DNA of 64,000 bases from Nitrospirota bacterium (GCA_963701855.1 CAVPBK010000001.1:1-64000); one strand, 5' to 3'; shown: positions 46,218-64,000, counted from the stretch's first letter. Notes: generated by a model from the letters alone, not told the origin. Translations and numbers: made by a program.

Positions 46218-46334
46218 TGAAAACTTCCAGTGAGTTTTTTTCGCAGAAGCTGAAATGGAGAGAGGCTACGTTCTAACACGACAAGTGTCAACCAGAAGAA
46301 GCAGGAAATGTCGGCACATCAAGAGGAAGAATGT

Positions 46335-46436
46335 CGCGCGTTGCGCGAGTACAGAAGATCATCAGGCTCCATCCCCTCCTCTGTCTTTCTGATCGTGCGG
46401 CCTCGGCGAGCAAGAAGGATGGTCTGGCAACTCCCT
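46335..46436 (+). repeat. Hairpin repeat family H, partial copies
   Basis: CGCGCGTTGCGCGAGTACAGAAGATCATCAGGCTCCATCCC and GCGAGCAAGAAGG match other copies. Confidence 0.75.
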
Positions 46437-46481
46437 CCCCCTATTTGCAAAAGCTTGGAATCGGCGTGTGAAATCCGGCGT

Positions 46482-46511
46482 ACCAGGGCCTCTTTTACTA
46501 GAGGCCCTGGT
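46482..46511 (-). terminator. Stem-loop behind duplicated gene, copy 1
   Basis: ACCAGGGCCTCT-6nt-AGAGGCCCTGGT perfect 12-bp stem; weak U-tail. Confidence 0.55.
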
Positions 46512-46537
46512 GGCCGTGAAGATGGCTGATAGCAGCG

Positions 46538-46903
46538 CTATTCCACTTCGACGATAATGGTGTGGGTAGCCGTGACAAGATCGTGGTCCTTCGTGGCGCC
46601 AGTCACGGTGATCTTGTGATCTCCCTTGCTCAGGCCCTTGAACGTCCCGGAAAAGCCTTTCTGATACTGACCGTCCAGGTACACATGGACATGCGTCGCT
46701 TGAGAGCCCTTGGTCAACTCATATTTCAACTCAAAGCTGTCGTCGACCTCATCCCCGTCCTTGGGAGATGTAATGACAACCTTCGATCCGTCTTCGACTG
46801 GTGGCTTAACTGGTTTATCCGCTGCAAAGACTGGTGCCCCGCTGAAGCAGCTCGCTAACACGATCCCTAGTCCCATGAGCCCGATACGTCCCATCATCTG
46901 CAT
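46538..46903 (-). CDS. Small secreted Ig-like protein, paralog 1
   Basis: Signal peptide, VVITSPKDGD, HVHVYLDG, GDHKITV..DH; GGAGG RBS. Confidence 0.8.
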   Translation of the reverse strand: MQMMGRIGLMGLGIVLASCFSGAPVFAADKPVKPPVEDGSKVVITSPKDGDEVDDSFELKYELTKGSQATHVHVYLDGQYQKGFSGTFKGLSKGDHKITVTGATKDHDLVTATHTIIVEVE

Positions 46904-47010
46904 CGCGACCTCCTTAGTTGAATCAACTGAATGGACATTGCAACTTACCATCGCCTGTGGGCTATCTGCTTGTCTGATTTCCCATCGCTCTCCGGTGGAG
47001 AATATCCGGC

Positions 47011-47039
47011 AATCTACTTCTCAGAATTGCCCCCGTCAA
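47011..47039 (-). promoter_or_regulatory. Sigma70 promoter, paralog 1
   Basis: TTGACG-17bp-TAGATT; conserved in the duplicate. Confidence 0.6.
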
Positions 47040-47083
47040 CCCGAACATGCGCGCATCGAAGTGCTTTTCTATCTTCTCCCTTC

Positions 47084-47177
47084 AGGGCAGGCTAGAAGGT
47101 CTCCCTCTGCGCGTGTTCAACGAGGGTCTTCCGAGACCGCGCGTTGCACGAGCACAGGAGATCCTCTAGCCTGCCCT
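47084..47177 (+). repeat. Hairpin repeat family H, full copy
   Basis: AGGGCAGGCTAGA...TCTAGCCTGCCCT 13-bp stem around the conserved core; TCCAAGCT follows. Confidence 0.85.
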
Positions 47178-47337
47178 CACATGCTCATTCCAAGCTCGCT
47201 TACCTATCTCACCCTTATTGAACAGACTGCCAAGAAATTAAAAAAGGGGGGAGGTACAGTCTCCAGTTGATATCGTTGAGCAATTTGTTAGATGATAATG
47301 GGTTAGACAGCGATATCAGACAATGGGGGTGGATATC

Positions 47338-47520
47338 ATGACAAAAGCGCAAGCTGCTGCGTTACGCGAGAAGTGGGAAGAGGGAGAAAATCTTCCATGT
47401 AAGCATCTGCACCTGGAATTGGAACACAACAACAACGATTATTTGACGGACAACTATCACTGTACTGCCTGCGGTGAATTGGTTGCCGCCAACACCCGTG
47501 ATCCCTTTCAAGTCATCTGA
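47338..47520 (+). CDS. Small putative Zn-ribbon protein
   Basis: 60 aa with CKH and CTAC motifs. Confidence 0.6.
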   Translation: MTKAQAAALREKWEEGENLPCKHLHLELEHNNNDYLTDNYHCTACGELVAANTRDPFQVI

Positions 47521-47686
47521 CCCCGACCAAGCCATCATCCCCACGTCTTCAGGATCCGAAATCGGGGTTCACTGAGCGAAAACGTCACCTGCGCGCGAAG
47601 CATCTCTGAAAGTGTCTGAAAATGTCGGACAGGCTCCTGGCCATGCACAGAACCATTCTGTGAACATCTCGTGGCAGTGGATACTC

Positions 47687-48370
47687 CTATCTCCGCAAGA
47701 AGCCGATCCACCGCCACAGGTTCAACAGACTCGCCAGGGAGGCCGCCACATAGGTCAGCGCGGCCGCGGTGAGGATGCGGCGGGCCCCCTGCTCGTCTTC
47801 AGGCGATAGATAGTTTCTTTGCTGGAGTATCGGCAGTGCACGCCTGAAACTGGCGTCCCACTCGACTGGAAGCGTGACAAGGTGCACAAGCGTGGAGATC
47901 CCCATCGTGGCCATCCCGGCAACCAGAACAAATACACCCGCCACAGGGGTCTGAGCTAACGCCACCGCAATCGGAATGCCCATCATCACTACCCCTCCGA
48001 GCTTTTCAGCCCCGTGCGCGACCCGCACAAGTCGCGTACGCTCCGTGAACGGCCGATAGCCTGCATGGTCTTGGATGGCATGCCCGACCTCGTGAGCGGC
48101 AACGGTGATAGCGGTGAGGGATTTCCCATTGAATTTATCGGGTGTCAGGCGGACGGCTTTAGTCTCAGGGTCGTAATGGTCACCCAGTTCGGTCGTTTCC
48201 ACCTTGATGTGCGTCATGTCTAACCGATCGAGCAGGTGCCGCGCTAACTCCGCTCCAGTTCCCGGATAGTCGGGACGGGGCATACTATGCTGGGCAAACA
48301 CCCGCCTGGTCCATAGTTGTGGACCGAATATGACGATACCGACAATGATCAACAGCAGGGCTATACGCAC
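47687..48370 (-). CDS. Neutral zinc metallopeptidase (YugP-like)
   Basis: DHYDP, VAAHEVGHAIQ, TLPVEWDASFRRA, AAALTYVA. Confidence 0.92.
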   Translation of the reverse strand: MRIALLLIIVGIVIFGPQLWTRRVFAQHSMPRPDYPGTGAELARHLLDRLDMTHIKVETTELGDHYDPETKAVRLTPDKFNGKSLTAITVAAHEVGHAIQDHAGYRPFTERTRLVRVAHGAEKLGGVVMMGIPIAVALAQTPVAGVFVLVAGMATMGISTLVHLVTLPVEWDASFRRALPILQQRNYLSPEDEQGARRILTAAALTYVAASLASLLNLWRWIGFLRR

Positions 48371-48524
48371 CCTATACCCCCTACCCTCCTATCGGGCGAG
48401 GCACTCGGCCAAGGCCATCGGCAAACACATGTGTGGGAGTGCCCCCTTTTTCACTCACGTTAACACAATGGACGGATGAAAAAGACGGGTAACAAACTTC
48501 CAGGAAATTAAGTGGGACAGTACA

Positions 48525-48717
48525 CTGCGCGTGTCCGACGAGGGTCTTCCGAGACCGAGCGTTGCACGAGCACAGGAGATCATCAGGCTCCATCCCTTCC
48601 TCTGCTCCAAACATCTACAAAGGGGAGTGGCCAAGGTTGCCCTTGACTGCGCGCATCGAGCGACCGCTGCTTTATCGCGGGGCTCTGCGAGCGAGAAGGG
48701 CACCTTGCCGCTCCCCT
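48525..48717 (+). repeat. Hairpin repeat family H, tandem partial plus full copies
   Basis: 48525-48597 near-identical to the 47107-47163 core; 48621-48717 stem AGGGGAGTGGCCAAGG/CCTTGCCGCTCCCCT. Confidence 0.85.
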
Positions 48718-48932
48718 CCCCCCTTCCAAACTCCCTCGCACTTTTCCCTCAAAGGATAGCCCGGATCTATCCTTGCTGCGCCTATCAACTGAACACCGCC
48801 TATCCTCTCCCTGCCTCTCTATTTGACCAGCTAACAGCCCTTTCTCTCATCTTGTGACTAGCCTGATCTGTTCGTCTGTGCTATAGACCGCGCATCGGGT
48901 CGCACCGAACAACCTCGAAAGACACAAGCACG

Positions 48933-50183
48933 ATGCCGACTTCCATTGCTGTAATCTTCATCGTGTTCTCCACCCTCGTCATTCTGAGCATTTACACGAT
49001 CAAACTTTCGAATCGGTTCGGCATCCCCTCACTGGTCTTGTTCCTCGCCATCGGCATGTTGGCGGGATCCGACGGTCTCGGCGGCATCACGTTCGACAAT
49101 CCGGCTCTGGTGCGATCGCTGGGTATTACTGCGCTCGTCTTGATTCTATTTTCTGGTGGATTAGACACAGAGTGGTCGGCAATACGCCCCATCGTGTGGC
49201 AGGGAGTCTCGCTCTCGACGATCGGGGTTCTGATCACTGCGCTGCTCATCGGGATGTTTGTCGCCTGGGTCCAAGGGTTCTCATTTCTGGAGGGCCTCTT
49301 GCTCGGCGCCATTGTATCGTCCACCGACGCTGCGGCCGTCTTCATGGTGCTACGAGCCCGGAGAACCAAAATCCCCCGGCGATTGATCCAATTGCTCGAA
49401 TTTGAATCCGGCAGCAACGATCCAATGGCCGTCGTGCTGACGATCGCGCTGATTCGACTGTTGACGGAACCCTCGACCTCTTTTGGGGAGCTGGTCCTAT
49501 TCTTTGTGATGCAAATGGGCGTGGGAACAGTGATTGGCATTGCGATGGGCGAAATCATGCGGCGATCGTTCAATGCGCTCGACTTGGAATTGGAAGGCAT
49601 TTATCCGGTGCTGTCGGTGGCGCTGGCGCTGCTGACCTACGGCATGACCGATTACCTGGACGGGAGTGGCTTTCTTGCCGTGTACCTGGCAGGGCTCGTC
49701 ATGCAGCGAAAACCGTTTACTCACCAGCAAAGTGTCTTGCGTTTTCACGACGGGCTGGCCTGGCTGATGCAGGTCACCATGTTCTTGGCACTGGGGCTAC
49801 AAGTATTTCCGGCAAGGCTCGTGCCAATCGCTGGGGTGGGCCTCCTGGTTTCTCTTTTCCTGATCTTCATCGCCCGCCCTGCGAGCGTCCACGTGGCGTT
49901 GGCTTTTTCGCCAATGTCCCTTCGAGAACAGACGCTTGTGGCCTGGGCGGGGCTCCGTGGGGCCGTGCCGATCATCTTGGCCACATTTCCCTTAGTGGCC
50001 GGGATCGAAAAGGCAGACATGATCTTCCATATGGTGTTTTTTATTGCACTCACGTCCGTCGTCATACAGGGGACGGCGATTCCGTTCCTCACGCGAATGT
50101 TGAAAATCGGAAGTCCACCATCGAATGAAACTCGATCCGGCCCACAGCTCAATCCGCAGCCACCCTCAAAACCGATGCCGTAA
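48933..50183 (+). CDS. nhaP2: K+/H+ antiporter NhaP2/CvrA family (membrane domain only)
   Basis: SSTDAAAVF, LEFESGSNDPMA, GLRGAVPIILA. Confidence 0.88.
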   Translation: MPTSIAVIFIVFSTLVILSIYTIKLSNRFGIPSLVLFLAIGMLAGSDGLGGITFDNPALVRSLGITALVLILFSGGLDTEWSAIRPIVWQGVSLSTIGVLITALLIGMFVAWVQGFSFLEGLLLGAIVSSTDAAAVFMVLRARRTKIPRRLIQLLEFESGSNDPMAVVLTIALIRLLTEPSTSFGELVLFFVMQMGVGTVIGIAMGEIMRRSFNALDLELEGIYPVLSVALALLTYGMTDYLDGSGFLAVYLAGLVMQRKPFTHQQSVLRFHDGLAWLMQVTMFLALGLQVFPARLVPIAGVGLLVSLFLIFIARPASVHVALAFSPMSLREQTLVAWAGLRGAVPIILATFPLVAGIEKADMIFHMVFFIALTSVVIQGTAIPFLTRMLKIGSPPSNETRSGPQLNPQPPSKPMP

Positions 50184-50475
50184 CTCTCTCCTAATCTGCC
50201 CACTCATTTTACTTGGTGCAGGGGCCAGATGCCCATTTCCCAGGACGAGCATCGCCATTGTCGAAGCTTCGTTTCTCTCTTCCATCTTTCATGTGTTGTC
50301 CTCCGCTTAAAACTCTGACAGGGGAAATTAGCCATGGGAAATGCGGAAAGCTGGGGAATTTGTTCGTAACGATCGTGATGGGAGACAACCGACCTCCGAA
50401 CATAGGAACAGGCTGTCCAGAAATTACGGAAGGCCGTATATGTGAAGGGGCGGAAACGGTTTATGAAACCCGACA

Positions 50476-50506
50476 CACCAGAGCCTCTTTCACAGAGGCC
50501 CTGGTG
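50476..50506 (-). terminator. Stem-loop behind duplicated gene, copy 2
   Basis: 13-bp stem with one G-U pair when read on the minus strand. Confidence 0.55.
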
Positions 50507-50531
50507 GCCCTGAGGGTGGTTAGTTGTAGCC

Positions 50532-50897
50532 CTACTGTACCTCGACGGTGATGCTATGACTGGCTGTGACAGGATCGTGGTCCTTTGTCGCGCCGGTCAC
50601 AGTGATCTTGTGCGTCCCCTTGCTCAGACCCTTAATCTCCCCCTTAAAACCCTTCTGATACTGATCGTCTACATATGCATGGACATGCGTACCTGCGGAG
50701 CCCTTGGCCAACTCATACTTCACCTCAAAAGTGTCACTGACCTTGTCCCCGTCCTTGGGAGACGTAATCGTCACCTTTGACCCGTCCTCTACTGGCGCAG
50801 CCGCTGGTTTATCCCCTGCGAAGACTGGCGCCCCACTAAGACATCCCGCCAACGCGATCCCTAATCCCATGAATCCTATACGTCCCATCATCTGCAT
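50532..50897 (-). CDS. Small secreted Ig-like protein, paralog 2
   Basis: Colinear with 46538-46903 (MQMMGRIG, TSPKDGD, HVH, HKITVTGATKDHD). Confidence 0.8.
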   Translation of the reverse strand: MQMMGRIGFMGLGIALAGCLSGAPVFAGDKPAAAPVEDGSKVTITSPKDGDKVSDTFEVKYELAKGSAGTHVHAYVDDQYQKGFKGEIKGLSKGTHKITVTGATKDHDPVTASHSITVEVQ

Positions 50898-51005
50898 CGT
50901 GACCTCCTTGTTTGAACCAACTGAATGAACACTACCACCTACCATCCTCTCCAGGATATCCTCTTCTCTGACTACCAGTCGTTCCCTGGCAGAGATCATC
51001 CGAAC

Positions 51006-51034
51006 ATTCTACTTTTCAAGATTGCCTCAGTCAA
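51006..51034 (-). promoter_or_regulatory. Sigma70 promoter, paralog 2
   Basis: TTGACT-17bp-TAGAAT. Confidence 0.6.
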
Positions 51035-51041
51035 TCCGCAC

Positions 51042-51333
51042 CTGCGCGCATCGAGCAACCGCGAACACAAATAATCCCTCCAAGCTTGCTCGCTATCTCT
51101 TCAGGGACGGGGACTGATTGATCTTCTCCTGCGCGCAGCTTTCTCACCCGCCTACCCACTGGCAAATATTTCTCACCCATCCTACCCTCCGATTGCTTCG
51201 CAATCGATTTCCCTGGACGTGCCACTAGCCCAGGCGAAGGCCTCCCGATTCTCCATACCTTTCTCAGGGGAGTGGCCAAGGCTGCCCTTTATTGCGCGCT
51301 CTGCGAGCAAGAAGGGCACATGGACATTCCTCT
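51042..51333 (+). repeat. Hairpin repeat family H, cluster of partial copies
   Basis: CTGCGCGCATCGAGC, CCCTCCAAGCT, AGGGGAGTGGCCAAGGCTGCCCTT...GCGAGCAAGAAGGGCAC. Confidence 0.75.
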
Positions 51334-51394
51334 CCCCCTCCCTCCTCACTCCACAATATAATATGGTACGGTAGAGCAACGACGGAGCCCGGCG

Positions 51395-52339
51395 ATGACC
51401 ATTCAGGCACAGTTTCCAGACGAGCAGAACATCGAGGGCGCCTTTATCAGGCAGCCGGATGCCTTTCAGGGCTGGGTGACCGCGAATGGCAACTCCGGCT
51501 ACCAGGCAGCGAGCGGCCGCTACCATCTCTATGTCTCATGGGCCTGCCCCTGGGCGCATCGGACGATTATTGTGCGGAAACTCAAGAAACTCGAACATGT
51601 GATCGGCATGACGATTGTGGACCCGATCCGCGACGAGCGGGGCTGGACCTTCCGAGAAGGACCAGGGCATTCACTCGATCCCATCAACGGATTCCAGTTC
51701 CTCAGTCAGGCCTACAAGGCCACCGATCCGAACTATCGAGGACGGTTCACCGTACCTGTGTTATGGGATACGATGACGAAACGCATCGTCACCAATTCCG
51801 ACGATGATCTCATGCGCATGTTCAACGGCGAATTCGATCGCTTCACCGAGAGCATGATCGACCTCTATCAAGAAGGAATCAGGAATGAGATCGAGAGCCT
51901 CAATACCTTCATCTACGAGAACGTGAACGACGGGGTCTATCGCGCGGGATTCGCCACATCACAGCAGGCCTATGAACGAGCCGTGTTGCGCCTCTTCGAC
52001 GCCCTCGATCAACTTGAGGCCAGGCTGGCGCGCCAACGCTACCTCTTCGGCTCACAATTCGTCGAAACCGATTGGCGCTTGTTCGTCACCCTCGTGCGCT
52101 TCGACGCCGTCTACCATGGCCATTTCAAATGCAACATCCGGCGGATCATCGACTACCCGAACCTCTTCAACTACCTCAAAGACCTCTATCAGACCGACGG
52201 CATCGCCGACACGGTGAACTTCGACCACATCAAGCGGCATTACTACATCACCCACGACGACATCAATCCAACCCGCATCGTCCCCCTCGGTCCCGATCAA
52301 GATCTCACCACCCCCCACGGCCGCGAACATCTGAGATAA
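51395..52339 (+). CDS. yqjG: Glutathionyl-hydroquinone reductase (GST Xi class)
   Basis: RYHLYVSWACPWAHR, TVPVLWD, VNDGVYRAGFA, RFDAVYHGHFKCN, HIKRHYY. Confidence 0.93.
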   Translation: MTIQAQFPDEQNIEGAFIRQPDAFQGWVTANGNSGYQAASGRYHLYVSWACPWAHRTIIVRKLKKLEHVIGMTIVDPIRDERGWTFREGPGHSLDPINGFQFLSQAYKATDPNYRGRFTVPVLWDTMTKRIVTNSDDDLMRMFNGEFDRFTESMIDLYQEGIRNEIESLNTFIYENVNDGVYRAGFATSQQAYERAVLRLFDALDQLEARLARQRYLFGSQFVETDWRLFVTLVRFDAVYHGHFKCNIRRIIDYPNLFNYLKDLYQTDGIADTVNFDHIKRHYYITHDDINPTRIVPLGPDQDLTTPHGREHLR

Positions 52340-52349
52340 CGAGCAGGCC

Positions 52350-52440
52350 GGTCTTTCTGGTTTTTTTGGTTCATCTGGTTTATCTGGTTAGTTTGGTTCA
52401 ACCAAATAAACGAGACAAACCAAACAAACCAGAACAACCG
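52350..52440. repeat. 9-bp-period palindromic element P1
   Basis: About 5x NNTCTGGTT then about 4x AACCAGANN. Confidence 0.85.
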
Positions 52441-52455
52441 CTTTCGCGGCAACCC

Positions 52456-52484
52456 TTGCGCGACTGATACGTCCGTGGTAAGGT
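52456..52484 (+). promoter_or_regulatory. Sigma70 promoter with extended -10
   Basis: TTGCGC-17bp-TAAGGT preceded by TGn. Confidence 0.5.
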
Positions 52485-52489
52485 GCAAC

Positions 52490-52564
52490 GTGATCGCGTA
52501 AGACCTTCCGTGCTCGGAGGCTGCAGTCCTCCAGCAGACACGAAGTCTGACGCGATATTTTTTT
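52490..52564 (+). ncRNA. Candidate small RNA or attenuator leader
   Basis: Long hairpin ATCGCGT..AGAC..CGTG..GGAGG/CCTCC..CACG..GTCT..ACGCGAT followed by T7, directly after the promoter. Confidence 0.45.
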
Positions 52565-52685
52565 GCCCGCACGCAGCCGTCCTGCATCTGCTGAGCATTC
52601 CGCCGAAGGCATAACCATCCCTCGCGCTCATTGCTAGCCCGACATCGCCGTGGGGTCATCCGTTACAATTCAAAGAGGTGAATCG

Positions 52686-53633: not shown

Positions 53634-53676
53634 GCCAATCGGGCCAACACAAGATCAGCACGTCTGGAGCAAGCCA

Positions 53677-53796
53677 GGTCTGTCTGGTCTGTTCGGTCTG
53701 TCTGGTTTGTTTGGTTGAACGAAACTAACCAGATGGACCAGAAAGACTGGACAGACCAAATGAACAAGACAGTCTGGCAGCCTTTTCAGCATCTTG
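53677..53796. repeat. 9-bp-period palindromic element P2 with IS-like right end
   Basis: TGTCTGGTC-like x4, then AACCAGA-like x5-6, then GGCAGCCTTTTCAGCATCTTG. Confidence 0.85.
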
Positions 53797-53835
53797 GTAG
53801 AGTACAATTCATTTTTTCAGAAAGTCTGTCCCCTC

Positions 53836-54675: not shown

Positions 54676-54704
54676 GTGGGCAGAAGAACAGCCCGGTATG
54701 GGCA

Positions 54705-54795
54705 GTTTATCTGGTGGATAGGTTTGTCTGGTCTATATCATCCCCCGAACAAGACAAACCAAATAAACCTCTGTAACCAGACAAACTAGAGAACC
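54705..54795. repeat. 9-bp-period palindromic element P3
   Basis: TTTATCTGG/TTTGTCTGG arm then AACAAGAC/AACCAAAT/AACCAGAC arm, between convergent genes. Confidence 0.75.
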
Positions 54796-54804
54796 GCAAC
54801 TCGC

Positions 54805-56268: not shown

Positions 56269-56367
56269 GTGTTCCCTTCAATCTGGGATGAGACCCGGTT
56301 AGTTCTTGGTAGGGAAGGAGCAGGGGACACTCCGGCGAGAAAAGGCTCCCGACCAACTTTGTGGACC

Positions 56368-59052
56368 CTATGCAGAAGCTACCGCTTTATCAATAACAGA
56401 AAAGTCCCCGTCGGTTGGCATCCCAAATAGGCACCGTCCGCCGCTTCGGGACGCCCAGACTTGACCAACTGCCCGCTTTTCTTCAGCGTCCACAGCGTCG
56501 TACAGATGTTTCCCTTTGTATTCGACCGCAAGCACTCGCCCATCAGCAAGTTGGCAAAGGAAGTCTGGATAAAACCAGTCTGTTGAGGTTTGCAGCCGGA
56601 ATGATGTGGGCTTGCGAGGGAGGTTCCGAACCCAGAACTGCACTTGCGGCAAACCATCGAGGAACTGCGCGCACCGAAACTCCTCCGTGGTCTGACCATC
56701 GGCCGTCTTTTCGGACAGTTCTCCAGGCTTTGGCCCGAAATAGTGCTTTTGAAACTGAAAGCCCCCTTCATAGACACGGCTCGGCTCATAGCCCATCGTC
56801 TTGAAGTTGATCGTGCGCCCTTCGTCTACGGTCAGCGGCGAATCCGGGAGAAGCAACAACTGAAACGACGCCTTCCGCTCGCTCTCTCGATGACCCTGGA
56901 TACGTGCCGCAATCTCATCGCGGAGCCGAAAACGATCGAGCGCCAGAGTACTGACATCCGTCATACCCAACTTCGCCATGAGTCCTCTGATAACTTTTCT
57001 CAGAAACTCCGCCGACTCACCGGCTGGAATGTCCGGATGGTCAATTTCCCGGTCCAACCACGCGACCAGGCTTTCGAGCGACCATTCGTTCGCACCACCG
57101 AGTTGGAGCACTTGCTGATGCAACGTGCCGACAAAGTCCGCCTCCGGAGTTTCTCGGATCACGCTGATCTGCACCTCGCCTTTGACTCCGATGTCCACCA
57201 GCCCGGCTTTGCCGTAGGGACGCACAAGAGGACTATAGCCTGCTGGCAGCGAGGCATCTTTTTCGCTAAGCCTCCACGGGTGTTCGATCAGAAACGTACT
57301 CTCGAACTCGTAGGGAGTCCCGTTTTCGAGGACACAGAGCAGCGGCACGAGAAAGTCCAGTTGCCGCTCGTAAGGCGAGGGAACGCGTGTGGCCCCGGTG
57401 CCGCCGAACGCCTTCTCTGCCTCTCGCACAAGCGCGACCGCTTCCTCCACCTGAGTCTTGGCTTCGGGAGTCTTGACGCAGCTCTTCAGCCTTTCAATGT
57501 CGTCTCGATCGAGCGGGACCACGATGGTGATCTCGCCTGTGGCGGCATCGATTCGCACTTTCCCGGCAAGGGCCAATACCTGGATGGGTGCCGCCTTCGC
57601 ATCAATGGCACTCGGCGCCACCCGCACGGTTTGTGGCTGCACACCGAGCGGGAGAGTGCCTTGCGGAACCGGAATGATGATACGCTCGGTCTCTGCTGCC
57701 GTGAAACCGTTGTGCTCCAGCGCCTCGCGCAATTCCGCGAGCACATCCGTAATCGAATCCGATACTGAGAAGGCGTAGGCGCAATTGAGATCGGGATGCC
57801 GCTTCATCTGCGCGAGTGGCAGCCGGAGAATGCGTCCGACGATCTGCTCAATGGCGGTGGGCGACCGCGTCTCCTTGAGGCTGCACAACACATAGGCAAA
57901 GGGGCAATCCCATCCCTCTCGCAGCTTTTCGACCGTGATAATCACGCGTACCGGGCACTTCGGCGACGAAATATCCTTCACATCTTTCAACTCATCGAGC
58001 CTGCCGACTGAGATTTTCACCTCGTCCTTCGATAGGTTGAACTCGCGCACCAGCCGGTCGCGTAGCGGCTCACAGGCATCGACACGTTCAGCCTGGATCA
58101 AGAGAATAGGCCGGATATACTCGCTCGTCTGTTGTCCTTCGGCCACAGCCAGCCTTTCGAGATCGGCACGGAGCGTGACCGCCTCCGCCAGCAGTTGATC
58201 GCGCTGGCTCGGATGCCGCGTGATAACCCGTAGCGGCAGCTTCACCATCTGCGCGGTTTTTAATTCAGCCGCCGAGATGCGATGCAGCACGTTCGATGGA
58301 GTCTTTTCCCGTGCCGGCGTCGCCGTAAATTCAACGATGCACGATGGCAACACATCGCCGAGTGTAGAAAAGGATAAGTCGGTACGAGCGTTGTGCGCTT
58401 CGTCCACAATGACGATGGGCCGGCGCAGCCGCAGCATGTTCACGAGCGACGGCTTGGGTTTGCCGTCTGCTCCAGGCAACAGATCGGCCAGGCGTTCCAA
58501 TGATATGTTGAGCAAATGTTCTGCAAATGCGCCGTTCTGGTCATAGACCTTGCGCCCTGTCGTATCCTCGACACGGAACGATTGAATCGTCGCCACGATC
58601 ACAACCGTCTGCCCCTCCACGGTTGCGCGCGACAGACGCAACGCCTCCGCAATAGTCACCACTTCCACCGCGCCACATGCCAGTTCCAACGCGCGGCGAT
58701 AGGGATGGCGCGGATCGCGCAACGCATCGGCAGTCTGATCGAGAATGGTGTTACTAGGCACGAGCCACAATACGACGGCATGGTCGGCCCGCATGAAGTC
58801 GTGCAGGGCAAGACCTGCTGCATAACAGGCCAGCAGCGTCTTGCCGCCGCCTGTGGGCACTCGCAGACACACATACGGCATGCGCGACTCCAGTCCTGCA
58901 ACTGACACAGGAAAATAGGGCATCGCTTCCCCATACACTCGCCTCGTCACGTCCCGAAACGCCGAATCTGGATCGTAGGTGCGGGCAGCCACGCGAAAGA
59001 ACTCACGCAACGATTCGAGCACGCGCTCTTGATAGTCTTTCAGCGCAATCAC
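56368..59052 (-). CDS. res: Type III restriction enzyme Res subunit
   Basis: PTGGGKT, IVDEAH, EGWDCP, QIVGRILR, C-terminal PDF..VEYKG nuclease motif. Confidence 0.9.
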   Translation of the reverse strand: MIALKDYQERVLESLREFFRVAARTYDPDSAFRDVTRRVYGEAMPYFPVSVAGLESRMPYVCLRVPTGGGKTLLACYAAGLALHDFMRADHAVVLWLVPSNTILDQTADALRDPRHPYRRALELACGAVEVVTIAEALRLSRATVEGQTVVIVATIQSFRVEDTTGRKVYDQNGAFAEHLLNISLERLADLLPGADGKPKPSLVNMLRLRRPIVIVDEAHNARTDLSFSTLGDVLPSCIVEFTATPAREKTPSNVLHRISAAELKTAQMVKLPLRVITRHPSQRDQLLAEAVTLRADLERLAVAEGQQTSEYIRPILLIQAERVDACEPLRDRLVREFNLSKDEVKISVGRLDELKDVKDISSPKCPVRVIITVEKLREGWDCPFAYVLCSLKETRSPTAIEQIVGRILRLPLAQMKRHPDLNCAYAFSVSDSITDVLAELREALEHNGFTAAETERIIIPVPQGTLPLGVQPQTVRVAPSAIDAKAAPIQVLALAGKVRIDAATGEITIVVPLDRDDIERLKSCVKTPEAKTQVEEAVALVREAEKAFGGTGATRVPSPYERQLDFLVPLLCVLENGTPYEFESTFLIEHPWRLSEKDASLPAGYSPLVRPYGKAGLVDIGVKGEVQISVIRETPEADFVGTLHQQVLQLGGANEWSLESLVAWLDREIDHPDIPAGESAEFLRKVIRGLMAKLGMTDVSTLALDRFRLRDEIAARIQGHRESERKASFQLLLLPDSPLTVDEGRTINFKTMGYEPSRVYEGGFQFQKHYFGPKPGELSEKTADGQTTEEFRCAQFLDGLPQVQFWVRNLPRKPTSFRLQTSTDWFYPDFLCQLADGRVLAVEYKGKHLYDAVDAEEKRAVGQVWASRSGGRCLFGMPTDGDFSVIDKAVASA

Positions 59053-59648
59053 GGCTTGCCTTTCGACTGGAAGCCGATACGCCGCTTGGGATGATCCGGG
59101 AGAGGCTGAAGAAGCGGGAGCAACTTCTCATACAGATCCAACAGGGCCGAATCATGCTGAAGCAATGTACGGTCGATTTCGGCTAGACGCTTGAGAATAG
59201 CCTGGTTGGCGACAATGTGCTCGCGCAGGCGCACGAACGCGCGGATGACAAACACACTCATGTGTACCGCTCGGTCGCTGCGCAGAATGTTCGCTGCCAT
59301 GAGCGCGCCATGCTCAGTGAAGGCCCAGGGGCGAAATCGAGGGTCACGGTGCTTCTGGGAACCGGTCACAATTTGTGACCGGTTATCCGTATCCTCGTAA
59401 TCTACAAGGGTTTCCCGGTTTGAGGTCACAGTTTGTGACCTCAAGTTTGTGACCTCTGCAGTCGTCAATTGAAATGCAAAATCCTTGGGGAAGCGGCTGA
59501 CATTTCGTTTAACGGCTTGGTTGAAGACTTTCGTCGTCACCCCGTACAGCCGGGCCAAATCCGCGTCGAGAATGACGCGCTGATTCCTGACGACAAAAAT
59601 CAGCGGCTCCAGTGATTCATGGACAAGGGCGGGCTTGCGTGACGACAT
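59049..59648 (-). CDS. ORF6N-domain DNA-binding protein
   Basis: VILDADLARLYGV, NQAVKRN..RFPKDFAFQL, PWAFTEHGALM, RRIGF. Confidence 0.9.
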   Translation of the reverse strand: MSSRKPALVHESLEPLIFVVRNQRVILDADLARLYGVTTKVFNQAVKRNVSRFPKDFAFQLTTAEVTNLRSQTVTSNRETLVDYEDTDNRSQIVTGSQKHRDPRFRPWAFTEHGALMAANILRSDRAVHMSVFVIRAFVRLREHIVANQAILKRLAEIDRTLLQHDSALLDLYEKLLPLLQPLPDHPKRRIGFQSKGKP

Positions 59649-59651
59649 AGA

Positions 59652-61368
59652 TCAGCTCACCTTAATCTCGTAGGGTGTCTGCCGAACAAGAGTACGCTCC
59701 GCCTGGAGTCGATCCTTCCCCAGCAAGCACCCGGCACAATAGATCACTTTCTGACCATCGAACTTTGGCAGTTTCGCCAGCACCGAACGCGTCAGCACGT
59801 TGCCCCCGCCCGAGCTTTTGTCGCCGAGAATGCCATTGAACAACAAATAGATTCCCACGCCCCGGCACTCGCCGATGAACGGCGACTTCGTCACGCGCTC
59901 GCGCGGGAGCGGCTCGCCCGTTTCAGTGAAATAGACGTGGCGCGCAAGGTCGGCAAAACTCACAGTCTCGCGAATCTTCCCGCTCTCGCCGAACAAAGGC
60001 TCTCCCAACTCACAATAGCGGAAGCTGCCCCCAAGCCCTTCAACCTTCTCACCCTTCGCATTCTTGTAGCCTTCGGCGACACGACGCACACGTTCGGCCG
60101 TAATCTTACGAGCGATCGACTCCTTCATTTCAACGAGAATGAACCGGCGATCTTGCCGATCAACATGATTCAACTTCAGTACAGCATGACCCGTTGTTCC
60201 CGATCCAGCGAAGGAGTCCAAAATCAAGTCATCATCGGACGTTGTAAAGCTGAGGAGTTCCTCTATCAACTCCGTAGGCTTTGGGAAATCAAACGGTCGC
60301 TTATCATCAGGGAATATGTCTTTTATCTCATATGTTCCAATTCGCCCATCCAACTCGAAAAGACTTGCCAGCTTTGCACGGTAATCTTTCACGTATACTT
60401 TCAGTTCGATGATTTTGGATTCGTCATCACCGAACAGAACACGGTTTTGAGCGAGCAATCCATCGAGCGTTTCTTTTGGAAAACGGTAGCCCATAAGAGG
60501 CTGCACGCACGGACTACCTGTAACGGGGTGAAGCACATCGTAACGGTAACCTTCTTTACCGGGGTTATGAACACTCTGGCTCCCGGTATAAATACCGCCA
60601 TCATCAATGTATTTGTAGCGGTCGAACGGCCAAAGGTAATCTTTATTCTCCCTGAACCATTTGGTGTACTCCTTCTGCCGCTTGTCGGGGTCCGAATATT
60701 TCCTCACGAACTCGTCCCCGACTAGTCAGTAGCTTATCCTTCACAGCCAAATTGACTGACTTCCACTCGCGAGGGAGCTTTTCCTTGTTCCTTGCATAGC
60801 AGAGAACATACTCATGCTCGGTGGCAATGTTCGTTGGATTGTTATCGGTTGCGTTCTTCCAAACCAATGTTCCAATTCGATTCGTGGCGCCAAAGATTTC
60901 GTCGAACAAAAGGCGCAGGGTTGGCACCTCTATCTCGTCAATACTTGCAAAGATCACCCCATCTTGTCGCAAGAACTTCTGCAGTAAGGCGATACGTGGA
61001 TACATCATGCAGAGCCATTTATCGTGTCGTGACAGGTCTTCCGCTTCTTCTCCGACGACTTTGCCTAACCACTCACGAATTTCCGGGCTATTAACATTGT
61101 CGTTGTAAATCCACCCTGAGCGTTTTCCTTCGTCGTTCCTTTCGTCCACACCAGTGTTGTATGGAGGATCGATATAGATGCACTTCACCTGCCCGGCGTA
61201 ATACGGAAGCAGCGCCTTGAGCGCAACGAGGTTATCCCCCTGTACGATGAGATTCCCGTCGCCCGGCTCACCGCAGGCGAGATCCGGCACGTCTTTGAGC
61301 AGGTGAAACGGCACCTGGTGGTGATGATTCACCACCGCCTCTTTCCCGATCCAATTCAGTGTAGGCAT
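59652..61368 (-). pseudogene. mod: Type III R-M Mod subunit (beta-class amino-methyltransferase), frameshifted near 60720
   Basis: MPTLNWIGK start and IYIDPPY in the 5' part; FPKP and DSFAGSGTT in the 3' part, in another frame. Confidence 0.88.
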
Positions 61369-61582
61369 AGAGAGAAGCCCGCCAAAATTAACCGCCGAAG
61401 AATACCCCTTTACCCGCAAGAAATCACGCGGCCATTTGTGAGGGAGAGAGAAAAGACCCTGTACTGGGAAGACATGAGATGTGAAAAATAACACGCGAGA
61501 AGCGAGGCGGCTGATATCGTCTCCACTGGTGTGCATCAAGCAAGGCTACAGACGATCCCTCCAAGCTGCTTACCTCCTTCAC

Positions 61583-61790
61583 AGGGCAGCCTGGTTGATC
61601 CTCGATTGCGCGCGTCGAACGAGCACCTTCTGAGCGTGCGCGTTCCGCGAGCAGGAGGATGACCAGGCTGCCCATCCCATCCTTCCGAGGCCGCGCGTTG
61701 CGCGAGCACAGGAGATCAACAGGCCGCCCTCCCGCTCTCTATTCTGCGAACAAGAAGAGCAGCGGGGCCATTCCACACCCCTTCCAAGCT
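61583..61790 (+). repeat. Hairpin repeat family H, full plus partial copies
   Basis: GGGCAGCCTGGT...ACCAGGCTGCCC 12-bp stem (61584-61673), then CGCGCGTTGCGCGAGCACAGGAGATC, then TCCAAGCT. Confidence 0.85.
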
Positions 61791-61934
61791 TGGTTGGCTC
61801 TCTTTCAAAGAGTTCATCACGAGATGTATGGTTCTGATTGCGTTCTCGGTTTGTACCAGCTATATGATAGGAGCTTAACTAGAATCGCCTCCGTGCGGAG
61901 AACCAATAAATAATTCCGATGTCCGCTTCAACGT

Positions 61935-62405
61935 ATGCGCAACAATCCGGCAATTAATATACTTCGATGGGCCATCGCGGTTCCAGCAGGTATCATGCTG
62001 TGGTTCGCCGCGAACCATTCTATTGGAATGGCATTCGGCATTATCCATGGAGTTGAACGTGTCGAGGCCTTTTGGGAAGCGCCGGATATGGATGGGGTGC
62101 CGATTATCGGCACATACATTATATTTATCACAAGGACTATTGCCGCTGCTTCTCTTGTGAGTGCGATTATCTACATCGTACCGCGCTATCACAAGCAGGT
62201 CGCAATCATTGCCGCCTCTCTTGTATCCGCCGCCGCCGCAGGTTTCTTGGTTTTCGTATCGGTTCAAGTTGCGAATGAGGATCTCAGCATCGGTCCGGAT
62301 GGCTGGTACAAACAGATTCTGGACACGCTGAGCATTATTTTTGGCGCAATAGCCGGTGCATGGCTGGCAAATCAGAATCAGAGAAAAGAACGCAGGCGTA
62401 GTTAG
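61935..62405 (+). CDS. Hypothetical 4-TM membrane protein
   Basis: 156 aa, four hydrophobic segments, basic C-terminus. Confidence 0.65.
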   Translation: MRNNPAINILRWAIAVPAGIMLWFAANHSIGMAFGIIHGVERVEAFWEAPDMDGVPIIGTYIIFITRTIAAASLVSAIIYIVPRYHKQVAIIAASLVSAAAAGFLVFVSVQVANEDLSIGPDGWYKQILDTLSIIFGAIAGAWLANQNQRKERRRS

Positions 62406-62421
62406 CCCCCACAACAGCATC

Positions 62422-62556
62422 CAGCAAGATACTGGAAACGTCCGCCAGCCTGAGAAGACGGTTGTTTGGTTTCTTCTGGTTTGTCTGGTTATTTTGTTGA
62501 ACGAAAACTAACAGATGAACTAGATAAACGAGAAAGACCAGATGAATCAGAGCAAC
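62422..62556. repeat. 9-bp-period palindromic element P4 with IS-like left end
   Basis: CAGCAAGATACTGGAAACGTCCGCCAGC, then TCTGGTT-type and AACCAGA-type arms. Confidence 0.8.
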
Positions 62557-62603
62557 CTGTCCCGTCAGTTTCGGTCACCCCGTTATCGTGCCGGCCCCCA
62601 CAC

Positions 62604-63134
62604 TTACTTGTTCCTCATCCGCCCAGTTCCCGTTGTCCCCACCATGACGACCACCTTTGTCTGGGGAGAAAAAGCTTGCTCGACGCGTTGCTTTCCGTTG
62701 GTCGTGAGGATAACAATTCCGCTGTGACTCTCAATGCGCTGAAGAAAATGGGCCGTCTCCGCACTTGCGAATCGGTCATGGGCATCGGTGACTGTACCGC
62801 GCGCCCTAAACAGCGCGTCTACTTCATCGAAGAAGAGGATCGCGCCACTGGTTTCTGCTTTATCAAATACGTCGTTCAGATTCTTCTCCGTCTCGCCGAT
62901 GTATTGACTTACCACCGCCGACAAATCCACTCTGAACAAATCTGTTTGTAGGGATTCGGCCAACGTCTCGGCGGACTTCCTTCGGCGGAGCGCCGTGGAG
63001 CCTGACAGAACCAGGACCGCGACAGATGTCGCCTTGGACTTCTTTGCCCGGCGTACCGACCTTGCCTTCTTCTTCGCTGCTGCCTTCTTCACCGCGGTCT
63101 TCGGTCTCTTCCCTTTGATTACCTTAGCTGCCAT
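62604..63134 (-). CDS. Degenerate AAA+ ATPase domain fused to Lys/Ala-rich N-terminus
   Basis: VDLSAVVSQYIGETEKNL, ILFFDEVDALF, LQRIE..IVILTTN; Walker A absent. Confidence 0.75.
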   Translation of the reverse strand: MAAKVIKGKRPKTAVKKAAAKKKARSVRRAKKSKATSVAVLVLSGSTALRRRKSAETLAESLQTDLFRVDLSAVVSQYIGETEKNLNDVFDKAETSGAILFFDEVDALFRARGTVTDAHDRFASAETAHFLQRIESHSGIVILTTNGKQRVEQAFSPQTKVVVMVGTTGTGRMRNK

Positions 63135-63292
63135 TCTTTTCCACGCTTCTCTTAATACGTTGAACTCCCGCCCCCTCCAATGTCCTGCCGCCGCATTCAC
63201 TCCCGAATATGCAGGCGACGGCTTGCGGATCTTATCTGCAATTGATCACAATGACCAGCGACTTACCCTGCACATAGGAAAGACTTCTCCTG

Positions 63293-63631
63293 ATGATGCC
63301 AACGGCGCTGATCGAACAGGAGCTCGCGGCAGCCGAGGCCGCACGGCATGACAACAACGACGGAAAGGCGCGAGTCTGTGCCAGACGCGCCGTGGCCCTC
63401 GCTACCGAAGCGTGGTTGGCACAGTTCTCTATTCCACGATGGCGGGGGGATGCAATGGCCCATCTCAGGCAAATTCAGCAGGACGAGTCGTTCCCTCTTC
63501 TCATCCGCCAGGCGGCCGAGCGATTGAGCACCCCGGTAACCCGTCAGCACGCAGCCCCCTTCACGATAAACCCCATCGCCGACGCAAGACTCATCATTGC
63601 CTATCTCAGCAGCACCAAGGGTGGCGCGTGA
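63293..63631 (+). CDS. Hypothetical protein
   Basis: 112 aa helical ORF, GKARVCARRA; no function assigned. Confidence 0.6.
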   Translation: MMPTALIEQELAAAEAARHDNNDGKARVCARRAVALATEAWLAQFSIPRWRGDAMAHLRQIQQDESFPLLIRQAAERLSTPVTRQHAAPFTINPIADARLIIAYLSSTKGGA

Positions 63632-63649
63632 AACGCGAGGATCGACTGA

Positions 63650-63782
63650 TCTCTCTTGTTTATTTGGTCTGTGTTGTTTGTTTGGTTGCACGAGACTAAC
63701 CAGATGAACAAAACAAACCAGATGAACCAGATCAACCCGCCCCGCCCGCCTTGCGTGCTACAACAGCTTTTTTGCAGCCTGC
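63650..63782. repeat. 9-bp-period palindromic element P5 with IS-like right end
   Basis: TTTATTTGG-type arm, AACCAGATG-type arm, then CAGCTTTTTTGCAGCCTGC. Confidence 0.8.
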
Positions 63783-63794
63783 ACCCCTCTCTAA

Positions 63795-63820
63795 AGGGGA
63801 GTGGCTGAGGCTGCCCTTCA
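63795..63820 (+). repeat. Hairpin repeat family H, left-arm fragment
   Basis: AGGGGAGTGGCTGAGGCTGCCCTT matches left arms at 48621 and 51266. Confidence 0.7.
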
Positions 63821-64000
63821 CCATTTTTCTCGACCGGTGGAGACTTCTAAGATCCCTTCTGTAGGAACGTCCACCTTATCTGCTTCAAAAACCTCTCCCT
63901 GAAATCGTAAGGAATGAGGTCGATTTCCCGAATGATTTGAACTATCCTTGGGCCGGTTCAAAAAGGAATCATTCTGGCCCTCGGACTGTTGGCCGGACGT

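Follow-up and report, generated by a model that had tools for sequence, protein, structure and literature searches.

The 64-kb window examined here (the whole stretch of 64,000 nucleotides from a Nitrospirota genome) raises the question of what an intergenic hairpin of roughly 95 nt represents when it recurs with a conserved core and with outer stems that differ in sequence and still pair. A sequence-only reading of this DNA had proposed a structure selected in single-stranded form, either a multicopy noncoding RNA or a mobile ssDNA repeat with replication-strand bias. The repeat, designated family H, is a real hairpin-forming element with a hairpin span of ~95–100 nt and ~200 copies per genome in Nitrospira nitrifiers, and it behaves as unstable repeat DNA rather than as a conserved RNA gene. 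Our leading reading, to which we assign a probability of about 0.5, is that of a REP/BIME-like mosaic palindromic repeat specific to Nitrospiraceae. Judging by its placement relative to genes, it is probably co-transcribed with the upstream gene as a 3′-UTR hairpin.

Abundance and phylogenetic distribution

An nhmmer profile seeded with the three full copies of the window retrieves 211 copies from the 4.3-Mb genome (121 on the + strand and 90 on the − strand), in keeping with the earlier description of the family as multicopy. Nearly all (203) lie outside called genes, the gene calls being those of a simple ORF and codon-usage caller made for this analysis. Partial copies account for 83 of the 211, and 20 of these 83 begin at the apical loop. 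The family is spread over 13 of the 15 contigs and both strands, at densities that range from 13–23 copies per 100 kb on contigs C1, C2, and C15 to 0–1 per 100 kb on C7, C9, C11, and C12.

The strict core motif occurs in all 24 congeners and in all 10 genomes of one sister genus (g8), and sister genera of Nitrospiraceae carry it at lower copy number. It is present in a single genome out of 24 in another family of the order and is almost absent elsewhere in the phylum. Because the range was drawn with a strict 16-nt motif, diverged relatives of family H may be missed.

No Rfam family matches family H at the gathering threshold in a search of the 64-kb window, which agrees with the earlier statement that no named family could be assigned. 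The sole Rfam match at E ≤ 1 is mir-3150, a generic miRNA hairpin that reaches 25 bits where the gathering score is 100 and hits both strands of one hairpin. Searched with a full copy at E ≤ 1e-3, plasmid and phage collections gave no hit. The suggestion that the system is undescribed likewise stands, insofar as the accessible portions of the literature searched on Nitrospira extragenic palindromes, intergenic hairpin repeats, and miniature inverted repeats hold no account of it. Three metatranscriptome runs contain ~6–10% (0.06–0.10) of the sequence words of the stretch, a word share that is silent on expression of family H.

Architecture and covariation

The unit consists of a ~50-nt conserved asymmetric core helix, a variable apical stem-loop, and two arms of 20–25 nt, with flanks that are pyrimidine-rich on the window-sense strand, i.e., the strand on which the window copies were originally presented. 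The core helix is marked by a fixed 2-nt bulge, a fixed G·A mismatch, and two co-varying pairs. The arms are nearly unrelated between copies, yet complementary: the 128 full copies sort into 71 clusters by arm sequence, and their mean pairwise identity is 0.49 in the arms versus 0.74 in the core plus apex. No pair among these full copies is at least 98% identical. The core is nearly invariant across species while the arms vary freely, such that the initial description of a conserved core within differing but paired outer stems holds for the window and extends to the 211 genomic copies.

Maintenance of the hairpin by compensatory change, as had been proposed, is borne out by 117 copies (3 from the window and 114 from other Nitrospira genomes). 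Paired cells make up 95.6% of this set versus 84.6% in shuffles, and the covariation score is 0.366 versus 0.177 in shuffles and 0.06–0.11 with slid partners; none of 500 shuffles reaches either observed value. Two column pairs that were unconstrained by the search pattern, and hence free to vary, illustrate the exchange: pair 41–74 appears as G-C 81 times and as A-U 31 times, and pair 44–73 as C-G 61 times and as G-C 54 times.

The two strands fold almost equally well. The mean fold energy is −60.0 kcal/mol for the window-sense strand versus −57.1 kcal/mol for its complement, and the window-sense strand folds better than the mRNA-sense strand (see below) in 91 of 128 copies. The G-T pairs that were said to favor the + strand do show a small excess (329 wobble pairs on the window-sense strand versus 290 on the other in per-copy minimum free energy folds), but the effect is weak. 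A larger column-wise excess (265 versus 76) is not taken at face value because it is confounded by subfamily inheritance.

The flanks are polar. Tails are pyrimidine-rich in 123 of 124 cases, counted on profile columns since refolding with 40-nt flanks paired neighboring tandem copies together. The mRNA strand has purine-rich flanks, and those of the other strand mix C and T with no T-run. In neither orientation does a U-tract follow the hairpin. The trailing TCCAAGCT regarded as shared by the copies does occur as an occasional linker but is not general, TCCAAGC lying within 45 nt on the 3′ side of 21 and on the 5′ side of 33 of the 211 copies.

Window copies and their counterparts in close relatives

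Family members are found at every position at which the sequence-only reading had placed its three full and several partial copies, all on the + strand. Two 3′ half copies stand in tandem at 46331..46385 (apical loop to pyrimidine-rich tail, nhmmer profile positions 62–115, 31 bits) and 46385..46449 (positions 55–118, 30 bits); both are conserved in the relative G015, the former in the same orientation. The full copy at 47076..47192 (hairpin 47084–47177, 60 bits) occupies a divergent intergenic region and folds at −61.8 kcal/mol (z −6.1). A 5′-truncated copy that is missing its left arm (48523..48604, positions 33–113, 54.5 bits) precedes the full copy at 48614..48729 (hairpin 48621–48717, 68 bits, −62.5 kcal/mol, z −5.7). 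An isolated left-core fragment at 51042..51062 belongs to direct-repeat family D9, with 95% identity to core 48647–48667, and 51261..51338 is an internally deleted copy that covers profile positions 4–111 in only 78 nt (28.5 bits), its arms retained and its core and apex gone. The full copy at 61576..61682 (hairpin 61584–61673, 87 bits, −62.1 kcal/mol, z −5.3) has a 3′ half copy appended to its tail at 61681..61740 (positions 55–112, 36 bits, confirmed by reading the sequence). The left-arm fragment at 63779..63821 was likewise read directly and belongs to direct-repeat family D7 (77% identity to 48605–48647). None of 200 shuffles folds as well as the three full window copies. Most window copies lie in divergent regions.

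Comparison of the window's own genome (G000) with the relatives G015 and G018 reveals that copies at the same site may be inverted, swapped in core type, internally deleted, or absent. Among 27 copies on contig C17 of G015 that have a counterpart in G000, two are inverted, namely window 47076–47192 and G000:C1:153490; their interiors are exact reverse complements, with outer arms and flanks unchanged. In the window case, the flipped segment is the inner ~50 nt and the preserved arms are 12 bp long. A different core type occupies the same site in more than one comparison, and at G000:C1:142 kb both genomes have an element, of different types. The orthologues of the deleted copy 51261..51338 are full copies in both G015 and G018 (87 and 84 bits). 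The full copy 61576..61682 sits in the right end of a 5.5-kb stretch (window 56329–61832) that has no counterpart in either relative. Orthologous flanks are 93–98% identical at sites with inversion, core replacement, and loss.

The G015 region orthologous to the one with copies 48523..48604 and 48614..48729 measures 326 nt versus 556 nt and has no family hit. The G000-specific block at window 48.4–48.9 kb, the one presence/absence site aligned, does not amount to a clean insertion, and no target-site duplication is seen there. At the level of these alignments, the copies are unstable as DNA, with interiors that flip via exchange between the arms, cores that are swapped, and copies that are halved at the apex, gained, or lost. 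Inversion, core swapping, and presence/absence at orthologous sites conflict with the option of an independent conserved noncoding RNA.

Orientation and placement at stop codons

The impression that all copies face one way whatever the direction of the flanking genes is true only of the eight window hits; genome-wide, both orientations are well represented and track gene direction. Intergenic regions with family H are bordered by 136 gene 3′ ends. At 70 of these, the closest copy is no more than 20 nt from the stop codon, where uniform placement would give 25.6. Only 11 of 128 gene starts have one that near. In 69 of the 70 stop-adjacent copies, the mRNA sense is the reverse complement of the window-sense strand, a polarity that holds when only high-confidence genes are counted (50:1 and 31:1) and that recurs in two genomes of a sister genus (9:0). 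Of the 83 co-directional intergenic regions in which every copy has the same orientation, 71 correspondingly have the window-sense strand antisense to their genes. The pyrimidine-rich tail of the unit typically adjoins the stop codon of an opposite-strand gene, and the mRNA would thus run from the stop codon through ~5–15 purine-rich bases into the hairpin's reverse complement. The native stop codon at one orthologous locus is in the same place whether the element is present or not.

GC skew is a second correlate of orientation (151 of 211 copies, Fisher p 2e-9; 63 of 93 at the cluster level, p 0.002), but gene direction is the better predictor: where the two conflict, 14 regions follow the gene and 6 the skew. 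The premise of strand fixity is not supported, and neither is the replication-strand argument that depends on it.

The strict polarity next to stop codons would be best explained by co-transcription with the upstream gene. Observations that run against this are that the mRNA-sense strand folds slightly worse than its complement, that the hairpin has no U-tract in either orientation, and that copies are not enriched in convergent over divergent regions (26 versus 22 of 132 regions, close to background proportions). These proportions do not fit a pure terminator, for which enrichment in convergent regions would be expected.

Alternative readings

If family H were an ssDNA-mobilized element of the REP/REPIN type, a Y1 HUH transposase (RAYT or IS200-like) would act on the folded single strand as the DNA replicates, cleaving and religating it, which would produce a replication-strand bias. 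The skew correlation is in line with this, as are the four PF01797 (Y1_Tnp) proteins encoded in the genome, and the conserved bulged hairpin together with a CTTCTGAG-like motif common to the apical loop and the tail that joins half copies could be likened to a guide and cleavage site. However, no HUH or RAYT gene flanked by family H exists in the genome. No family H copy lies closer than 3 kb to any of the four Y1 genes. Around three of them there is none within 15 kb, and the fourth has a pair on one side, 3.2 and 4.7 kb away. Perfect 25-nt inverted repeats of its own, unrelated to family H, border the RAYT-like gene at C11:87349. At E ≤ 1e-20 with this query, the RAYT-like protein is found in 23 of 45 genomes of the bacterial family (a tally that includes the unpublished genome G341) and is not found in the 99%-complete congener G001, which has 68 strict core motifs nonetheless. 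The preferred strand is C-rich and is not the lagging-strand template that IS200/IS605 elements use, gene direction outpredicts skew, and the scarcity of near-identical copies gives no sign of a recent burst. Neither a parent transposon nor a dedicated enzyme was found among the Y1 genes of the genome and their flanks or at the one presence/absence site, and we regard mobilization of this kind as unlikely. Slightly less improbable is a function in DNA and not in RNA, in which a DNA-binding protein particular to the lineage would recognize the element as a double-stranded or cruciform site. Examples would be a protein of the nucleoid or of DNA topology, a polar block to transcription or replication, and a site-flipping recombinase. 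A core that stays nearly invariant while the arms vary, near-equal folding of both strands with no clear strand preference of wobble pairs, inversion of interiors between relatives, and concentration of copies in some chromosomal stretches all fit such a site. Against it, no candidate protein was found, and the 69:1 polarity accords more naturally with an effect at the transcript level, although a polar DNA site could also produce it. With only 2 of 27 copies inverted and core and tail so tightly coupled, frequent switching is unlikely as well.

Independently transcribed structured small RNAs from the window-sense strand would explain the strong covariation, the conserved core with its fixed noncanonical features, and the slightly higher RNA stability of that strand, which, being antisense to the neighboring gene, could give antisense RNAs. 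The copies, however, have neither a conserved promoter nor a U-tract terminator, many of them (83 of 211) are halved or otherwise partial, their arms are almost wholly different, and no Rfam family matches them. Inversion, replacement, and loss between flanks of 93–98% identity add to these objections and make small RNAs a very improbable reading. An attC-like recombination site between integron cassettes is hardly credible. Imperfect palindromes of attC-like length that are locally co-oriented and have AAC…GTT inside the core do recall attC, but the conserved part lies mid-hairpin and not at the base, where R and L boxes are expected. The copies are moreover dispersed over contigs and strands, the flanking genes are ordinary chromosomal ones of mixed direction (Na/H exchanger, Zn peptidase, GST, RNase II), and syntenic core genes have copies after their stop codons.

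Proposed mechanism and implications

For the preferred reading of a mosaic palindromic repeat, templated repair or exchange from one arm to the other, which also generates the inversions, would keep the arms complementary while they drift. Covariation in the arms would then not in itself call for an RNA. That the core is nearly invariant across the genus suggests that some putative trans-acting factor reads it. As a 3′-UTR hairpin, the element could serve as a 3′-end protector, as a U-tract-free terminator, or as a brake on the terminating ribosome, in line with what is reported of E. coli REPs near stop codons. A more speculative proposal, which we consider unlikely, is that the bulged core is the recognition site of a putative Nitrospiraceae-specific factor and that the element is a mobile, self-renewing 3′-end signal set in one polarity at ~70–100 stops per genome, acting as a U-tract-free factor-dependent terminator or a translation-termination modulator that is switched off and on by arm-exchange flips. 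If true, family H would constitute a genome-wide set of miniature invertible 3′-end switches.

Nitrospira are the main nitrite oxidizers and the complete ammonia oxidizers in soils, waters, and wastewater plants, and, to our knowledge, almost nothing is known about their transcript ends or genome rearrangement. With ~200 landmarks per genome in a very strict relation to stop codons, gene 3′-end biology becomes directly testable in this hard-to-grow group. The family is also a clean natural case of compensatory hairpin “covariation” alongside DNA-level inversion and module swapping, and it warns against taking covariation alone as proof of a structured RNA. In practical terms, assemblies break at family H, which may also point to the flexible parts of Nitrospira genomes.

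Relation to known systems

Family H resembles intrinsic terminators in having a stable G+C-rich hairpin a few to ~15 nt past the stop codon that is orientation-locked to the upstream gene. It differs from them in lacking a U-tract, in its far longer stem, and in its presence in divergent promoter regions (22 of 132). The number of canonical terminator-like sites in the 20-kb region scanned is no higher than that in shuffles (20 versus 17.9 ± 4.3).

Small hairpin-associated inversions are known from chloroplast noncoding DNA, and quasi-palindrome template switching is known from bacteria. As in these, the interior between short inverted repeats flips between relatives while stems and flanks stay. 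Unlike in these, what flips in family H is an asymmetric core that is conserved and multicopy, with one orientation strongly preferred relative to the neighboring gene.

Bacterial MITEs such as the Correia elements of Neisseria, ERIC/IRU, and RUP/BOX are ~100–150 nt long, can fold into long hairpins, are often co-transcribed with neighbors, and vary in presence between strains. Family H shares their size class, long hairpin, and variable presence. It appears to depart from them in that terminal inverted repeats are not shared between copies, the ends (the arms) being its least conserved part, in the lack of a target-site duplication at the one presence/absence site, in the lack of near-identical copies, and in that no parent IS emerged from the Y1 genes and their surroundings.

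The closest likeness is to the REP/BIME of Enterobacteria and the REPINs of Pseudomonas, which are high-copy intergenic imperfect palindromes of 20–40 nt with several subfamilies per genome, mostly located just downstream of genes. Family H is likewise a high-copy, intergenic, lineage-confined imperfect palindrome that mostly lies just downstream of genes, and it shares with them mosaic or tandem arrays, linker motifs, a second repeat family, and several subfamilies per genome. In contrast to RAYT-mobilized REP/REPINs, family H does not have inverted copies on either side of a RAYT gene, and no conserved tetranucleotide stood out beside the hairpin foot. Family H is further set apart from REP/REPINs by a hairpin of ~95–100 nt, by a conserved asymmetric part that is interior while the foot formed by the arms is hypervariable (identity 0.49), and by its very strict stop-adjacent polarity of 69:1.

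Family H copies in the window and their anatomy

Family H, a ~95-100-nt intergenic hairpin repeat, is real and far larger than is visible from the window. Every element that the sequence-only reading had listed is present on reading the sequence, and profile hits cover three full copies (47076-47192, 48614-48729, and 61576-61682), four truncated or half copies (46331-46385, 46385-46449, 48523-48604, and 61681-61740), and one internally deleted copy (51261-51338). All eight profile hits lie on the + strand, with further family H fragments at 51042-51062 and 63779-63821. Positions 1-46330 of the window gave no nhmmer profile hit. Each of the three full copies forms one long hairpin of -62 kcal/mol (z -5.3 to -6.1), an energy matched by none of 200 shuffles, and their reverse complements fold about equally well.

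The 120-position profile consists of a pyrimidine-rich 5′ flank, a left arm of 20-25 nt, a core helix, an apex, and a right arm with a pyrimidine-rich tail. Two fixed features interrupt the core helix, a G.A mismatch and, on its 5′ side, a TC bulge of 2 nt; the apical stem-loop is variable and comes in two or three types. Across the 128 full copies of the window's own genome, mean pairwise identity is 0.74 in core plus apex versus 0.49 in the arms; constraint falls on the core and spares the arms. These copies form 71 arm clusters at 85% identity, their median nearest-neighbor identity is 0.87, and no pair among them reaches 98%. By profile columns in the same genome, pyrimidines make up at least 70% of the sequence in 123 of 124 tails and in 92 of 102 5′ flanks; within this genome, flank polarity and core orientation go closely together.

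Two neighborhoods of window copies have features of their own. The - strand genes at 46538-46951 and 50532-50999 are small paralogues with weak matches to Big_7 (bacterial Ig); the stretches 46500-46799 and 50494-50793 share 77% identity over 300 nt, and upstream of both genes lies similar sequence with a half core of family H (47010-47059 and 51005-51054). This arrangement suggests a local segmental duplication that may have carried repeat fragments along. The 5.5-kb stretch at 56329-61832 encodes a helicase (ResIII/DEAD), an ORF6N protein, and, divided over two ORFs (59652-60707 and 60643-61539), an N6_N4 DNA methylase, and its right end contains family H copies. It has no counterpart in the relatives G015, where the gap measures 175 nt, and G018, and it looks like an inserted restriction-modification-like island.

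Genome-wide census and taxonomic range

Contig C1, whose first 64 kb make up the window, belongs to an assembly of 4.30 Mb, 15 contigs, and 55.6% G+C. An nhmmer profile seeded with the three full window copies and iterated four times to convergence yields 211 non-overlapping hits in this genome (121 + and 90 -), comprising 128 near-full-length and 83 partial copies, 20 of which begin exactly at the apical loop. Copies are unevenly spread: contigs C1, C2, and C15 carry 13-23 per 100 kb, and C7, C9, C11, and C12 carry 0-1. The copies crowd into one syntenic chromosomal stretch of ~300 kb (C1, C2, and C15 here; contig C17 in G015), where nearly all face one way: 25 + and 3 - on C1, 0 + and 15 - on C15, and 41 - and 5 + among the 46 hits on the 310-kb G015 contig.

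The range of the family was searched with a strict 16-nt motif from the right core, which may miss diverged relatives. The motif occurs in 24/24 other species of the genus, with 15-148 hits each, and in 0/16 genomes from three other families of the order; the reversed pattern, run as a control, has 0-1 hits. Among 300 genomes drawn from the phylum, the motif is present in 6/6 of the window's genus (58-120 hits each), 10/10 of one sister genus (5-22 hits), 15/26 of another genus of Nitrospiraceae (1-6 hits), and 1/24 of another family of the order (one hit). Beyond the order, ~225 genomes from the remaining orders of the class and from elsewhere in the phylum give two single hits only. A full-core pattern matches at least 128 loci in named genome records. 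Among the 80 matches listed, 79 are titled Nitrospira, Nitrospiraceae, Nitrospirales, or Nitrospirota and one "bacterium" only; the complete Ca. Nitrospira defluvii chromosome is among those listed. Plasmid and phage collections gave no family H match.

Covariation and folding strand

The proposal that compensatory change holds the hairpin together was borne out in an alignment of 117 copies (window, 3; other Nitrospira genomes, 114). The search pattern behind the 114 prescribes most of the core, and core invariance among them is therefore by construction. Standard pairs fill 95.6% of cells versus 84.6% in column shuffles, and the covariation score is 0.366 versus 0.177, with 0/500 shuffles reaching either value. 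Sliding the partners by 1-3 columns lowers the score to 0.06-0.11, and 11 of 20 pairs have changes on both sides. The two degenerate core positions, free to vary under the pattern, co-vary almost perfectly: the first is G-C in 81 copies, A-U in 31, G-U in 3, and unpaired in 1, while the second is C-G in 61, G-C in 54, and unpaired in 1. Copies from the window's genome, collected without the pattern, behave likewise.

Below, the reference strand is the + strand of the window copies and R is its reverse complement. Folded as RNA, the reference strand has a slight edge in stability, averaging -60.0 versus -57.1 kcal/mol for R, and is the better folder in 91 of 128 copies. In column-wise counts G-T over A-C stands at 265 versus 76, an excess dominated by positions inherited within subfamilies; the G-T excess is weak in per-copy folds, which contain 329 wobble pairs on the reference strand versus 290 on the other.

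Polarity relative to genes and stop codons

Genes were called by a simple ORF and codon-usage method (3551 genes, 76% coding), and 203 of the 211 copies lie outside them. The 132 intergenic regions with copies comprise 84 co-directional, 26 convergent, and 22 divergent ones, near background proportions; the type of intergenic region is not selected. The reference strand is the C-rich strand in 151/211 copies (p 2e-9) and in 63/93 clusters (p 0.002), a skew correlation that would fit a replication bias. Gene direction has the stronger hold: copies face both ways in only one of the 84 co-directional regions, the reference strand is antisense to the genes in 71 of the 83 one-way regions, and where gene direction and skew conflict, 14 regions follow the gene and 6 the skew. 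R is therefore the strand predicted to be carried by neighboring mRNAs. The same counts, together with the 121 + and 90 - hits, overturn at genome scale the earlier view that copies face the same way regardless of gene direction.

In place of strand fixity comes a much sharper rule, polarity relative to the upstream stop codon. For the 136 gene 3′ ends bordering a region with copies, the nearest copy edge lies within 5 nt of the stop in 48 and within 20 nt in 70, versus 25.6 expected within 20 nt under uniform placement. Copies within 20 nt of a stop have R polarity in 69/70 cases, and restriction to high-scoring genes gives ratios of 50:1 and 31:1. Gene starts lack such contact: their median distance to a copy is 165 nt, and it is 20 nt or less at only 11/128. 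The order at the junction is the stop codon, ~5-15 purine-rich bases, and the hairpin. At one locus compared in six genomes, the native stop codon keeps its position with or without the element; the element thus follows the stop codon and is not its source. In two genomes of a sister genus, 20 extracted regions contain 40 hits, 3 of them inside called genes; all nine copies within 20 nt of a stop are R, and beyond that distance the copy-to-stop relations are 16 R versus 11 reference strand.

Comparison with close relatives

Flanks in G015 are 93-99% identical to those of the window's genome, and the elements between them behave as recombining repeat DNA, not as a conserved RNA gene. Of the 46 G015 contig C17 hits, 29 map by both flanks to a single place, and 27 of these places hold a copy, 25 in the same orientation and 2 inverted. 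At one mapped site, elements that differ in core type and arms stand between flanks with 100% identity for more than 100 nt. The site after the gene at 153 kb on C1 holds a copy in R orientation; G015 has a copy there with equal outer arm ends and with core and apex inverted, G018 has similar arms with another core type, and G004, G013, and G014 have no family H copy. The core has been lost from the window copy at 51261-51338, and full copies stand there in G015 and G018. G015 has nothing that corresponds to the copies at 48523-48729.

At window 47076-47192, the G015 copy carries an exact reverse complement over its inner ~50 nt, with no change in the outer 12-bp arms or in either flank, and an arm mismatch switches side; this indicates exchange between the two arms. 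Arm-to-arm templated correction would offer a non-RNA route to compensated arms, and the inversions would then be its crossover products. The interpretation favored here, at roughly even odds, is a REP/BIME-like mosaic repeat, specific to the lineage, which undergoes recombination as DNA and resides in the putative 3′ UTR of the upstream gene.

Other repeats

Extracted locus L140 contains two stretches, 1-158 (C1:152300-152457) and 2203-2480, with many matches at 75-92% identity in every genome of the genus; they appear to be further repeat families or conserved small genes. The window also holds a second intergenic long-palindrome family (52346-52445, 53679-53772, 54739-54790, 62454-62557, and 63650-63741) built of 9-nt periodic units, AACCAGA-like on one arm and TCTGGTT-like on the other. 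Its arms are 41-88 nt long and mutually 71-87% complementary, and its 7-mer is enriched in the genome (885 versus ~525 expected).

Repeat family "T" (~150 nt) has terminal inverted repeats of type CAGGATGCTGAAAAAG, occurs genome-wide, is intact at extracted locus L153 of the relative G014, and adjoins some H copies of the window's genome. The TAG stop codon of upstream genes overlaps its terminal CTAG. Its motif has 102 occurrences in the genome and, for 11/211 H copies, separates the copy from the stop codon.

Comparison with known families

No Rfam family matches at gathering score within the 64-kb window; relaxing the threshold to E ≤ 1 brings up only a generic miRNA hairpin, hit on both strands. 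Terminator-like sites in a 20-kb region are not commoner than in shuffles (20 versus 17.9 ± 4.3). No description of family H was found in those parts of the literature that were searched.

The suggested copy-flanked HUH or RAYT gene did not materialize. The genome has three IS200-like genes and one RAYT-like gene, and all four are more than 3 kb from the nearest family H copy. The RAYT-like gene encodes a 229-aa Y1 transposase (C11:85849-89193, gene at 1189-1878 of this locus, - strand) and has repeats of its own, perfect 25-nt inverted repeats unrelated to family H; a 204-nt tandem duplication spans its 3′ end and one repeat. Its distribution is patchy, with 23/45 genomes of the family in a tally that includes the unpublished G341, and it was not found in the congener G001.

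REP and REPIN elements are defined by a flanking RAYT gene and a short palindrome with a conserved foot, and family H has neither. As to the conserved terminal repeats and target duplications that define MITEs, the arms of family H differ between copies, and the one presence/absence site aligned shows no duplication. Family H nevertheless stands nearest to REP/BIME and REPIN elements and bacterial MITEs, with which it has its lifestyle in common.
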